The notes below the pieces were generated by a model that searched no databases, was not told where the DNA came from, and saw nothing but the letters and a program-made list of their open reading frames with translations. Shown here one piece after another: positions 3,651 to 37,000 of a stretch of DNA of 64,000 nucleotides. Location of the stretch: the NCBI RefSeq assembly GCF_055900595.2, contig NZ_CM148325.1. One strand, given 5' to 3'. Position numbers and translations under genes: made by a program. Numbering within the stretch: position 1 is the first letter of the stretch; every line of letters starts with the position of its first letter.

Positions 3651-4643
3651 ATGAGTCAGAATACGCTGAAAGTTCATGATTTAAATGAAGATGCGGAATT
3701 TGATGAGAACGGAGTTGAGGTTTTTGACGAAAAGGCCTTAGTAGAAGAGGAACCCAGTGATAACGATTTGGCCGAAGAGGAACTGTTATCGCAAGGGGCC
3801 ACACAGCGTGTGTTGGACGCGACTCAGCTTTACCTTGGTGAGATTGGTTATTCACCACTGTTAACGGCCGAAGAAGAAGTTTATTTTGCGCGTCGCGCAC
3901 TGCGAGGAGATGTTGCCTCCCGCCGCCGGATGATCGAGAGTAACTTGCGTCTGGTGGTAAAAATTGCCCGCCGTTATGGCAATCGTGGTCTGGCTTTGCT
4001 GGATCTTATCGAAGAGGGCAACCTGGGGCTGATCCGCGCGGTAGAGAAGTTTGACCCGGAACGTGGTTTCCGCTTCTCAACATACGCAACCTGGTGGATT
4101 CGCCAGACGATCGAGCGGGCGATTATGAACCAAACCCGTACTATTCGTTTGCCGATTCACATCGTAAAGGAGCTGAACGTTTACCTGCGAACCGCACGTG
4201 AGTTGTCGCATAAACTGGACCACGAACCAAGTGCGGAAGAGATCGCAGAGCAACTGGATAAGCCAGTTGATGACGTCAGCCGTATGCTTCGTCTTAACGA
4301 GCGCATTACCTCGGTGGACACCCCGCTGGGTGGAGATTCCGAAAAAGCGTTGCTGGACATCCTGGCCGATGAAAAAGAAAACGGCCCGGAAGATACCACG
4401 CAAGATGACGATATGAAACAAAGCATCGTCAAATGGCTGTTCGAACTGAACGCCAAACAGCGTGAAGTGCTGGCACGTCGATTCGGTTTGCTGGGGTACG
4501 AAGCGGCAACACTGGAAGATGTAGGTCGTGAAATTGGCCTCACCCGTGAACGTGTTCGCCAGATTCAGGTTGAAGGCCTGCGCCGTTTGCGCGAAATCCT
4601 GCAAACGCAGGGGCTGAATATCGAAGCGCTGTTCCGCGAATAA
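3651..4643 (+). CDS. rpoS: RNA polymerase sigma factor RpoS (sigma-38), full length
   Basis: ORF 3615..4643; start at internal Met ([11 protein letters not shown]...) gives 330 aa; no premature stop; codon 33 is GAG. Confidence 0.95.
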
Positions 4644-4659
4644 GTAAGCATCTGTCAGA

Positions 4660-4694
4660 AAGGCCAGTCTCTTATGAGGCTGGCCTTTTTCTTT
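4660..4694 (+). terminator. rho-independent terminator downstream of rpoS
   Basis: GC stem GGCCAG...CTGGCC followed by T-run (ggccagtctcttatgaggctggccttttt). Confidence 0.7.
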
Positions 4695-4763
4695 TGTATG
4701 GGGAGTTGGTGTGTTTTGTCGCCTGGATAAGACACGTCAGCGTCCCATCCGGCAATCAGCATC

Positions 4764-5204
4764 CTATTTGCTCATCATCTTGCGCACCAGCTGCATAAAC
4801 AGCTCCTGCTCTTCTCCACTCAAACGCCCCAAAAATTCCTCATCCACACTGTCACCAATCGGTATCGCCGCAGCAAGTACCTTTTCTCCTTCGGCAGTCA
4901 GCCAGACAAAGCGTCGCCGCTTATCAGCAGAGTCATGTTCTCGTCTGACTAAGCCACGATTTTCCATTCGTGCCAGCATTTCTGCCAGCGTTGCTTTGGT
5001 GCTGACTGCTGCTTCCATCAGCGCAACCTGTTCGATGCCAGGCTTATCAGCAATGGCGCGCATCACCGCGTACTGCGGTTTGGTCAGGTCAGGTAGCTCG
5101 TGCTGCCAGCGAGATGTGTGCTGCTGAAAAAGCTGTCGTAACTGATGGAACGCTTTATTTCGTAACGCCATGTAAACTCCGGGCAAACTATCTGCCGCTA
5201 TCAT
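4764..5204 (-). CDS. MarR/SlyA-family transcriptional regulator
   Basis: 146 aa ORF with winged-helix MarR-like core; divergent from adjacent decarboxylase operon. Confidence 0.8.
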   Translation of the reverse strand: MIAADSLPGVYMALRNKAFHQLRQLFQQHTSRWQHELPDLTKPQYAVMRAIADKPGIEQVALMEAAVSTKATLAEMLARMENRGLVRREHDSADKRRRFVWLTAEGEKVLAAAIPIGDSVDEEFLGRLSGEEQELFMQLVRKMMSK

Positions 5205-5286
5205 AGCGGTTTTTCAGTGACGCAGGGGATGTTGTTACTTTTCAGTGCTTGCCGCGATGAGAACAGAGGCGTATTTTAATAATAAC

Positions 5287-5300
5287 GTTCGTATACGAAC
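5287..5300. promoter_or_regulatory. perfect 14-bp palindrome GTTCGTATACGAAC, candidate MarR-type operator
   Basis: Seen in sequence in the 113-bp divergent intergenic region, 18 bp upstream of the UbiX-like start codon. Confidence 0.45.
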
Positions 5301-5317
5301 AATTAAGAGAATTAACA

Positions 5318-5911
5318 ATGAGACTGATCGTCGGGATGACAGGGGCCACCGGAGCGCCTCTTGGTGTGGCATTACTGCAAGCGCTGCGGGAGATGCCGAA
5401 TGTCGAGACTCATCTGGTGATGTCGAAGTGGGCGAAAACCACCATTGAACTGGAAACGCTTTACAACGCCCGCGATGTTGCTGCCCTCGCAGACTTCTGC
5501 CATAACCCGGCGGATCAGGCCGCAACCATCTCCTCAGGTTCCTTTCGTACCGACGGCATGATCGTTATTCCGTGCAGTATGAAAACGCTCGCCGGTATCC
5601 GCGCTGGTTACGCCGATGGCCTGGTAGGGCGCGCGGCGGACGTCGTGCTCAAAGAAGGCCGCAAACTGGTGCTGGTGCCGCGTGAAATGCCGCTTAGCAC
5701 CATCCATCTCGAAAATATGCTCGCACTTTCGCGCATGGGCGTGGCGATGGTGCCGCCGATGCCTGCCTTTTATAACCATCCCGAAACGGTAGATGACATT
5801 GTCCACCACGTGGTAGCCCGCGTGCTGGATCAATTTGGCCTCGAACATCCTCACGCCAGGCGCTGGCAAGGATTGCCGCAGGCCCGGAATTTTTCCCAGG
5901 AGAATGAATAA
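5318..5911 (+). CDS. UbiX-family flavin prenyltransferase paralogue (decarboxylase B subunit)
   Basis: 197 aa; MRLIVGMTGATGA flavoprotein motif; first gene of a three-gene operon. Confidence 0.85.
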   Translation: MRLIVGMTGATGAPLGVALLQALREMPNVETHLVMSKWAKTTIELETLYNARDVAALADFCHNPADQAATISSGSFRTDGMIVIPCSMKTLAGIRAGYADGLVGRAADVVLKEGRKLVLVPREMPLSTIHLENMLALSRMGVAMVPPMPAFYNHPETVDDIVHHVVARVLDQFGLEHPHARRWQGLPQARNFSQENE

Positions 5912-7338
5912 TGGCATTTGATGATTTACGCAGCTTTTTACAGGCGCTTGATGACTACGGTCAGTTACTGAAAATCAGTGAAGAAGTGAACGCCGAGCCG
6001 GATCTGGCAGCCGCTGCCAACGCCACTGGGCGTATCGGCGACGGTGCACCGGCGCTGTGGTTTGACAATATTCGCGGCTTTACCGATGCCCGCGTGGCGA
6101 TGAACACTATCGGTTCCTGGCAGAACCACGCGATTTCCCTCGGCCTGCCGCCAAACACCCCGGTTAAAAAACAGATTGATGAGTTTATCCGCCGCTGGGA
6201 TAACTTCCCGATTGCCCCGGAACGCCGCGCTAATCCAGCGTGGGCGCAGAACACCGTCGATGGCGAAGAGATTAACCTGTTCGATATCCTGCCGCTGTTT
6301 CGTTTAAACGATGGCGATGGCGGTTTCTATCTCGACAAAGCCTGCGTGGTTTCCCGCGATCCGCTCGACCCGGATAACTTCGGCAAGCAGAATGTCGGCA
6401 TCTATCGCATGGAAGTGAAGGGTAAGCGTAAGCTCGGCCTGCAACCGGTGCCGATGCACGATATCGCCCTGCATCTGCATAAAGCGGAAGAACGTGGTGA
6501 AGATTTGCCAATTGCCATCACGCTGGGTAACGATCCGATCATCACCCTGATGGGCGCCACCCCGCTGAAATACGATCAATCAGAGTACGAAATGGCTGGC
6601 GCACTACGCGAAAGCCCGTACCCGATCGCCACCGCCCCGCTGACCGGTTTTGATGTGCCGTGGGGCTCGGAGCTGATCCTCGAAGGGGTAATCGAAAGCC
6701 GTAAACGCGAGATTGAAGGGCCGTTCGGTGAATTTACCGGCCACTACTCCGGCGGGCGCAACATGACCGTAGTGCGCATCGATAAAGTCTCTTACCGCAC
6801 CAAACCGATTTTTGAATCGCTCTATCTCGGTATGCCGTGGACCGAAATCGACTATCTGATGGGGCCAGCCACCTGTGTGCCGCTGTATCAGCAACTGAAA
6901 GCCGAGTTCCCGGAAGTGCAGGCGGTGAACGCCATGTACACCCACGGCCTGCTGGCGATTATCTCCACCAAAAAACGCTACGGCGGCTTTGCCCGCGCGG
7001 TGGGCCTGCGTGCGATGACCACGCCGCACGGTCTGGGCTACGTGAAGATGGTGATTATGGTCGATGAAGACGTTGATCCGTTCAACCTGCCGCAGGTGAT
7101 GTGGGCGCTTTCGTCGAAAGTGAACCCGGCAGGGGATCTGGTGCAGTTGCCGAATATGTCAGTACTGGAACTCGACCCTGGCTCAAGCCCGGCGGGGATC
7201 ACCGATAAGCTGATTATCGACGCCACTACGCCTGTCGCCCCGGACAACCGTGGTCACTACAGCCAGCCGGTGGTGGACTTACCGGAAACCAAAGCCTGGG
7301 CTGAAAAACTGACCGCTATGCTGGCCGCACGTAAATAA
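5911..7338 (+). CDS. UbiD-family aromatic acid decarboxylase (C subunit)
   Basis: 475 aa UbiD-like protein; start overlaps upstream stop (ATGA coupling). Confidence 0.85.
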   Translation: MAFDDLRSFLQALDDYGQLLKISEEVNAEPDLAAAANATGRIGDGAPALWFDNIRGFTDARVAMNTIGSWQNHAISLGLPPNTPVKKQIDEFIRRWDNFPIAPERRANPAWAQNTVDGEEINLFDILPLFRLNDGDGGFYLDKACVVSRDPLDPDNFGKQNVGIYRMEVKGKRKLGLQPVPMHDIALHLHKAEERGEDLPIAITLGNDPIITLMGATPLKYDQSEYEMAGALRESPYPIATAPLTGFDVPWGSELILEGVIESRKREIEGPFGEFTGHYSGGRNMTVVRIDKVSYRTKPIFESLYLGMPWTEIDYLMGPATCVPLYQQLKAEFPEVQAVNAMYTHGLLAIISTKKRYGGFARAVGLRAMTTPHGLGYVKMVIMVDEDVDPFNLPQVMWALSSKVNPAGDLVQLPNMSVLELDPGSSPAGITDKLIIDATTPVAPDNRGHYSQPVVDLPETKAWAEKLTAMLAARK

Positions 7339-7348
7339 GGAGAACAAG

Positions 7349-7585
7349 ATGATTTGTCCACGTTGTGCCGATGAACAGATTGAAGTGATGGCGAAATCGC
7401 CGGTGAAAGATGTCTGGACGGTCTACCAGTGCCAGCATTGCCTTTATACCTGGCGCGATACTGAACCGCTACGCCGCACCAGCCGCGAACATTACCCGCA
7501 AGCGTTCCGTATGACTCAAAAAGATATTGATGACGCACCGATGGTGCCGAGCATTCCGCCGCTGCTGGCGGCAGATAAGCGCTAA
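7349..7585 (+). CDS. small decarboxylase subunit with CxxC...CxxC zinc-ribbon (D subunit)
   Basis: 78 aa ORF, CPRC...CQHC, 10 nt after the UbiD-like gene. Confidence 0.7.
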   Translation: MICPRCADEQIEVMAKSPVKDVWTVYQCQHCLYTWRDTEPLRRTSREHYPQAFRMTQKDIDDAPMVPSIPPLLAADKR

Positions 7586-35446: not shown

Positions 35447-36882
35447 TTTGCCTCCGATGCCAGTTCGTCAAAGACGTCTTTGCCGAGAGAGCATTCCGGG
35501 CACAGGAAGTTATCCGGGACTTCACTCCACGGCGTTCCTGGCGCAACGTCCTGCATTGGCTCGCCTTTTGCCGGATCGTAAATCCACTGGCAGACACTGC
35601 ACTGCATCCGTGGGCCGAGGTCAGCCGTCGTGGTGGCACAGGTTTCTTCTTTAACCACCGTATTCACCGTGCTCTGTGGCAGCGGCGAAAGCGCCCACTG
35701 ACGGGCAATTTCACGACCGTGTTCACGGCATAACTCCAGCGCGTCCTGGTCCGGTCGCCATTTGGCTTTCAGGCTAAGCGACATTTCGAAACCTGCATCC
35801 TGCAGGCGTGTGGAAAGACGATCCACCGCACCGCCGCTCCAGCCGTGAGAGCCGAAAGCACTGGCGCGTTTGTTACGGAAGCGTAATCCGGTCATCTCCT
35901 CCACCAGCCCGGCGATTTTCGGCATCATCACGTTATTCATCGTCGACGTGCCGACCAGCACGCCTTTTGAGCGGAAGACATTGGTCAGGATTTCGTTTTT
36001 ATCGCTTCGGGCAACGTTGAAAATTTTCACCGCCACGCGTGGGTCGGTTTCCGCAATACCCTGGGCGATAGCATCGGCCATCATGCGGGTATTATTCGAC
36101 ATGGTGTCGTAGAAAATGGTGATTCTGTCTTCCTGATAATCCGCCGCCCATTTCAGGTACAGCTCGACAATTTGCGTCGGGTTATCGCGCCATACCACGC
36201 CGTGAGAGGTCGCTATCATATCGACCGGCAAGTTAAAGCCCAGGATCTCGGTGATTTTCGGCGTTACCAGGCGGCTGAACGGTGTCAGGATATTGGCGTA
36301 GTAACGCTGACACTGCTCGAAAAGCTCGGTCTGATCCACTTCATCGTTGAAGAGATGCTCGTCGCAGTAGTGCTGACCGAAAGCATCGTTACTGAACAGC
36401 ACCGCGTCGCCCGTCAGGTAAGTCATCATGCTGTCCGGCCAGTGCAGCATTGGCGTTTCGACAAAAATGAGTTGTTTGCCGTTGCCGATATCCAGCGTGT
36501 CGCCGGTTTTCACCACGTTGAAATTCCACTCCGGATGATGGTGATGACCATTTATTGAGTCGATAGCGTTGGCAGTACAATAGATCGGCGTATCGGGAAT
36601 TTGCGCCATCAGTTCGGTCAGCGCCCCGGCGTGGTCCTCTTCAGCATGGTTAATCACGATGTAATCGATATCCGCCAGATCGATTTCATTACGCAGGTTC
36701 TGCACAAATTCGCGGCTGAATTTATGGTCGACGGTGTCGATCAGTACGTTTTTTTCTTCGCGGATGAGGTAGCTGTTGTAACTGCTGCCGCGCAGCGTTT
36801 TATATTCTGTACCGTGAAAATCACGCACTTCCCAGTCACGTTGACCAACCCAATGAATGTTATTTTTCACCACAATAGACAT
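35443..36882 (-). CDS. norV: anaerobic nitric oxide reductase flavorubredoxin NorV
   Basis: 479 aa; metallo-beta-lactamase + flavodoxin + C-terminal rubredoxin CxxC...CxxC. Confidence 0.94.
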
Positions 36883-36946: not shown

Positions 36947-37000
36947 TTTTTTATCTAATTGTTTTTAATCTATAAATTAATTTATGCTCATTAATGAGTA

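Follow-up and report, generated by a model that had tools for sequence, protein, structure and literature searches.

The perfect 14-bp palindrome GTTCGTATACGAAC at positions 5287-5300 of the window (the whole 64-kb stretch of DNA analyzed here) is, with high confidence, the HosA operator that controls the 4-hydroxybenzoate decarboxylase operon; HosA is a MarR-family repressor, and its gene lies in divergent orientation at 4764-5171. It is an already published HosA site of E. coli, and the finding as such is not new. The present analysis provides the identity of the site and of its regulator, and shows that the site, like a -35/-10 pair upstream of it, is deeply conserved. The palindrome matters chiefly as correct annotation of a HosA/4-hydroxybenzoate switch in the rpoS-mutS polymorphic region, and adds no new biology.

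The gene order in the window (truD, surE, pcm, nlpD, rpoS, the MarR-type gene, three decarboxylase genes, pphB, a Sel1-repeat ORF, and mutS) is that of the rpoS-mutS region of Escherichia, and the locus is part of an E. coli chromosome. The divergent arrangement of hosA and the decarboxylase operon is the same as in the RefSeq annotation of E. coli genomes. The features of the locus are as follows.

4764..5171, minus strand: hosA, MarR-family winged-helix repressor, 135 aa (Pfam, identity to PDB 8aga, PGAP start)
5200..5205, minus strand: candidate -10 element of hosA, TATGAT, within the conserved block TAT[C/G]ATAGC (5199-5207)
5249..5254, plus strand: predicted -35 element of the decarboxylase operon, TTGCCG (TTG 5249-5251 invariant in 68 loci, 16 genera)
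5272..5277, plus strand: predicted -10 element of the decarboxylase operon, TATTTT (T5272, A5273, and T5277, that is TAnnnT, invariant in 68 loci)
5287..5300, no strand assigned: probable HosA operator (HosA box), GTTCG-TATA-CGAAC (identity to a published oligonucleotide, conservation)
5305..5309, plus strand: Shine-Dalgarno-like AAGAG of vdcB (sequence; GAGG in the corresponding position of homologues)
5318..5911, plus strand: vdcB/ecdB, UbiX-family flavin prenyltransferase subunit B (NCBIfam NF041206 VdcB, 311.3 bits, cutoff 290)
5911..7338, plus strand: vdcC/ecdC, UbiD-family decarboxylase subunit C (NCBIfam NF041204 VdcC, 787.6 bits, cutoff 650)
7349..7585, plus strand: vdcD/ecdD, small subunit D (NCBIfam NF041205 VdcD, 120.5 bits, cutoff 30)

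The adjacent B, C, and D genes (operon 5318-7585) each score over the cutoff of the respective NCBIfam profile, which assigns them to VdcBCD/EcdBCD; by these matches the operon would encode the subunits of a non-oxidative hydroxyarylic acid decarboxylase. The hosA product belongs to the MarR family by two Pfam profiles, PF01047 (46.3 bits, cutoff 24.6) and PF12802 (40.6 bits, cutoff 27), and in the profile search no NCBIfam equivalog reached its cutoff with this protein. It is ~96% identical to PDB 8aga, "Transcriptional regulator HosA", crystallized from EPEC E2348/69. Five of the 134 residues differ from the crystallized protein (S20, M52, S81, G119, and S134), with S81 located in the wing region, and the predicted recognition-helix region is the same in both. 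The HosA allele of the window would probably behave like the HosA proteins tested in experiments.

The start of hosA was placed at 5171, where PGAP gives a 135-aa protein at the equivalent position in five E. coli genomes; the homologues from 75 loci align from the Met at 5171, and GGAG sits 5 nt upstream of it. The hosA-vdcB intergenic region is 146 bp long (5172-5317), not 113 bp as in the original prediction, which had used the longest ORF. This ORF opens at the ATG at 5204, inside the conserved TATGAT motif. The neighboring rpoS gene is intact in the window (3615/3651-4643). In E. coli O157:H7 strain F6321 (comparison locus L077, 1510-2494), the annotation lists rpoS as a pseudogene with a frameshift.

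Direct reading of the window confirmed the position and the exact 7+7 symmetry of the palindrome. Its outward extension stops at C in position 5286 and A in position 5301, and the 14-mer has no other exact copy in the 64-kb window. The palindrome is separated by 17 nt from the start codon of the UbiX-like gene vdcB (ATG at 5318) and by 4 nt from the AAGAG motif, in line with the original placement of the site just upstream of the ribosome-binding site of this gene.

The bare palindrome is no proof beyond chance. The window contains three perfect 14-bp palindromes compared with a mean of 5.0 expected from first-order Markov simulations, and the probability of one such palindrome within a 146-bp region of the same composition (P ~0.013) is suggestive, not strong. 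The other two perfect palindromes are CAAAGACGTCTTTG at 35469-35482 and ATAAATTAATTTAT at 36972-36985, a number that fits chance. This chance-level count is what one would see if the palindrome were fortuitous, or a terminator-like hairpin without function, but we regard this explanation as having a negligible probability, given that the half-sites are invariant over dozens of genera, compared with ~49% mean identity in the neighboring columns, and that experimental binding of HosA has been published. The palindrome at 5287-5300 is significant because it is conserved, not because it is palindromic. A terminator scan did flag the minus strand at 5301..5286; however, the "T tail" of this hit is the AT-rich -10 region, and a terminator on the minus strand has nothing to stop, because vdcB lies on the plus strand and no gene runs in. 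As an intrinsic terminator the structure was rejected, with a hairpin of -3.4 kcal/mol and an interrupted tail, TTATTATTAA.

Within the 64 kb there is no sign of further HosA targets: additional sites resembling the HosA box with at most three mismatches (three matches, 1.8 expected) and occurrences of the half-site pattern elsewhere in the window (four matches, 2.7 expected) are both at the chance level.

The published binding data refer to the same DNA sequence. Positions 5286-5301 of the window, CGTTCGTATACGAACA, are identical to the dsDNA(HosA)-F oligonucleotide of Liang et al. 2019 (PMC6694116), where CGTTCGTATACGAACA placed in unrelated flanks binds HosA, and p-hydroxybenzoate specifically releases the protein, whereas close analogues do not. 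Cao et al. 2018 (PMC6261655) describe a "14-bp palindromic TFBS of HosA", with both the protein and the site taken from E. coli UMN026, and report HosA-site binding by EMSA and biolayer interferometry, release by 4-HBA, and a Kd of 4.7 uM for 4-HBA determined by ITC. In their probe with native context, the 5' flank is CAGAGGCGTATTTTAATAATAAC, an exact match to window positions 5264-5286, and their oligonucleotide T_H and the nicked/split pairs R7 and R8 reconstitute GTTCGTATACGAAC. A 15-nt form, GTTTCGTATACGAAC (starting with GTTTCG), is given in supplement tables; it is absent from all 80 loci and from the window, and the 14-mer follows from the R7/R8 split oligonucleotides as well as from the forward oligonucleotide that Liang et al. 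used. We treat the extra T in the 15-nt form as a text-conversion or typing artifact.

The 2018 and 2019 studies both cite Roy & Ranjan 2016 (Biochemistry 55:1120). As summarized in two preprints, that work reports that HosA represses the decarboxylase (HAD) operon, that 4-HBA derepresses it, and that HosA is autorepressed; according to a preprint summary, it also places the palindromic site downstream of the transcription start. The original prediction had assigned the palindrome to a MarR-family dimer and proposed repression of the operon relieved by a phenolic ligand. This interpretation is supported: the published HosA-bound sequence is identical to the palindrome, the regulator is nearly identical to crystallized HosA, and the ligand in the publications is specifically 4-hydroxybenzoate. 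The closest experimentally studied counterpart is the hosA-HAD (ecdBCD/vdcBCD-type) divergon of UMN026, which has the same 14-bp sequence and the same 23-bp upstream flank as the window, the same gene neighbors, and a site likewise just 5' of the operon ribosome-binding site. The differences are allelic alone, namely one or two bases in the flank proximal to the ribosome-binding site and a few HosA residues, the latter by comparison with the crystallized protein of EPEC E2348/69.

To characterize conservation of the box, one genome per species was scanned, which resulted in 75 hosA loci from Escherichia, Citrobacter, Salmonella, Klebsiella, Enterobacter, Kluyvera, Kosakonia, Lelliottia, Leclercia, Pluralibacter, Phytobacter, Atlantibacter, Franconibacter, Rahnella, and other genera. 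The half-sites GTTCG-N4-CGAAC are exact upstream of hosA in 69 of the 75 homologous loci, and two Rahnella loci have the half-site ATTCG. Only the four central bases of the box vary (TATA, TGTA, TACA, TATG, or CATA). Since the sequences were anchored on exact half-sites, the half-site information content of 2.0 bits is circular, and motif-blind alignments were used instead, one of the whole intergenic regions of 68 loci made with MAFFT and a further one across 16 genera. In the 68-locus alignment, nine of the 14 columns of the palindrome show no variation, compared with seven of the other 132 intergenic columns, and identity to the window averages 0.95 inside the palindrome and 0.49 outside it.

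The box is also tied to the operon by its position. The divergent hosA-vdcB arrangement is kept in 69 of the 75 loci, and in 65 of 67 loci the end of the box is 15-19 nt from the vdcB start codon, whereas its distance to hosA varies from 115 to 185 nt. In two loci without vdcB, the HosA box lies in front of vdcC instead; these are Superficieibacter (L059, 1366-2793) and an Enterobacterales MAG (L068, 1175-2599). An actinobacterial homologue with 47% identity was found in Fodinicola feengrottensis (L073), where the hosA-vdcB intergenic region is 65 bp long and contains two adjoining boxes, GGTCGTAGACGAAT and GTTCGTGTACGAAT, with starts 15 bp apart. Because of these two actinobacterial boxes, the half-site motif seems to be older than the Enterobacteriaceae.

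The seven invariant columns outside the palindrome are TTG 5249-5251, TA 5272-5273, T5277, and C5207. The first six fit a predicted sigma-70 promoter TTGCCG-17 nt-TATTTT, the 17-nt spacer being constant across genera. The sigma-70 consensus scan of positions 4600-5500 returned no promoter at its threshold, because TTGCCG-17-TATTTT scores 8/12, just under this threshold. Transcription of the operon is predicted to start at about 5284-5285. With this start, the box would begin 2-3 bp further on and span about +3 to +17, so that it would be part of the first stretch to be transcribed and not lie upstream of the promoter, which agrees with the published downstream position as relayed in the preprint summary.

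These positions suggest how HosA would act. In a HosA dimer, each winged-helix domain would contact one of the half-sites, GTTCG or CGAAC. Given the predicted position of the box, the bound dimer would be expected to stand in the way of RNA polymerase: occlusion of the enzyme at about +3 to +17 would prevent open complex formation and promoter clearance and keep the operon off. Repression by such occlusion is the most likely mechanism. 4-Hydroxybenzoate, a substrate of the encoded decarboxylase, would then bind HosA, which would leave the DNA and allow induction of the operon. For HosA of other strains, experiments have established 4-hydroxybenzoate as the inducer.

If the predicted start (~5284) is correct, the palindrome is also part of the vdcB leader, which raises the question of whether it acts mainly as RNA, as a 5'-end stem-loop stabilizing the message or modulating its translation. 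The transcript would fold into a 5-bp stem with a 4-nt loop, and the positions that vary across genera are just the loop bases. Nevertheless, a main role in RNA is very improbable. The hairpin is weak (-3.4 kcal/mol by itself and -4.9 together with its surroundings; z-score only -1.7 to -2.8) and pairs with neither the Shine-Dalgarno region nor the start codon. Its stems are invariant rather than covarying, as would fit base-specific contacts with a protein; the motif is repeated upstream of the -35 element in 33 loci, where it would be outside the vdcB mRNA; and the published protein binding is to the DNA duplex. An RNA-level role of the palindrome is thus secondary at most.

Another reading is that the palindrome is the site of a different regulator, or that HosA uses it for some other purpose, for example to activate or repress hosA only. 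HosA has also been linked to motility and fliC in EPEC, its autorepression is reported, and on the minus strand TTGTTC (5302..5297)-18 nt-TAAAAT (5278..5273), which overlaps the box, could be an alternative hosA promoter. This reading is nonetheless highly unlikely, as the distance of the box is fixed with respect to the decarboxylase start codon and not to hosA, the box stays with the operon even when the first gene differs, and the literature summaries describe repression of the operon and its derepression by 4-HBA.

The best candidate -10 element of hosA (5205..5200) belongs to the block TAT[C/G]ATAGC, which is at least 90% conserved in the 68 loci, with C5207 invariant; across the 16 genera, positions 5200, 5201, 5203, 5204, 5205, and 5207 are invariant. 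The conserved core could be either the hosA -10 element or the site of another factor. It is contained in a perfect 15-bp odd palindrome at 5195-5209, CCGCTAT-C-ATAGCGG, which was flagged by the terminator scan as well. Because this candidate -10 element is ~80 bp from the box, autoregulation of hosA by a single box is unexplained from the sequence. The autoregulation proposed in the original prediction is in keeping with the autorepression given in the summaries of Roy & Ranjan 2016, but a mechanism acting from the single box does not follow from the arrangement of the region.

A second, imperfect box, in most cases GATCGTGTACGAAC and with an exact right half in every case, was observed in 33 loci at a distance of 56-57 bp from the main box toward hosA (L006, L009, L018-L019, L021-L022, L024-L025, L030-L031, L033-L037, L040-L050, L053-L055, L057-L058, L060, and L074). 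It lies about 84-97 nt upstream of hosA, ends 4 nt before the -35 element, and occurs in Klebsiella, Enterobacter, Kluyvera, Lelliottia, Leclercia, Pluralibacter, and Pseudocitrobacter. Among the 75 loci, the second box is absent in Escherichia, Citrobacter, Salmonella, and Kosakonia, and the Escherichia intergenic region is ~25 bp shorter. One tentative and rather doubtful scenario is that the ancestral enterobacterial operator had two boxes, the perfect one at +3 to +17 and the imperfect GATCGTGTACGAAC, and that Escherichia and some other genera lost the auxiliary box. In that case, HosA would act in E. coli through one site alone, perhaps without cooperativity and with more leakage, and the autoregulation of hosA would differ as well, one possibility being the minus-strand promoter overlapping the box.

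Several known systems resemble the HosA switch in part. MarR of E. coli with its marO sites I and II is likewise a dimeric winged-helix repressor that binds a (pseudo)palindrome in a promoter/leader and is released by phenolic compounds. MarR, however, is co-transcribed with its target (marRAB) and not divergent, and marO has two sites in one promoter, with sequences unrelated to the HosA box. BsdA of Bacillus subtilis is a phenolic-acid-induced regulator encoded divergently from bsdBCD (yclBCD), a homologous B/C/D hydroxyarylic acid decarboxylase operon, but its operator logic is unrelated to that of HosA, because BsdA is a LysR-type activator and not a MarR-type repressor.

The next closest solved structure to HosA is PcaV (4fht, E = 7e-16). 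PcaV of Streptomyces coelicolor (Davis et al. 2013, PMC3616709) is a MarR-family repressor of an aromatic-acid pathway and is released by the hydroxybenzoate-type substrate of that pathway. Of its two operators, OI/OV, one is a perfect inverted repeat with a 4-bp center ~10 bp downstream of the operon transcription start, and the other is an imperfect second site toward the regulator gene, as in the hosA loci of Klebsiella, Enterobacter, and other genera; Escherichia hosA loci, by contrast, have the operon-proximal site only. The two systems differ in the half-site (TCAG-N4-CTGA for PcaV and GTTCG-N4-CGAAC for HosA) in the ligand, which for PcaV is protocatechuate, and in the pathway.

The HosA/4-hydroxybenzoate module already serves as a paraben/4-HBA biosensor part. 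The cross-genus footprint map, comprising the -35 and -10 elements and the box with its invariant half-sites and tolerant 4-bp center, could aid sensor engineering, and also hints at the auxiliary second box in other genera.

Finally, of 5,426 complete E. coli genomes, 2,405 (~44%) carry the hosA locus, and the 34-mer around the palindrome is identical in 1,696 complete genomes of this species. The window allele itself is uncommon: identity of at least 99% over 800 bp (window 4650-5450) was found in only eight of the 2,405 genomes, and most of the 2,405 are 90-95% identical to the window allele. An IS200/IS605 tnpA gene, which the window is without, lies between rpoS and hosA in NZ_CP098223.1 (L076), the single 100% match among the matches listed.
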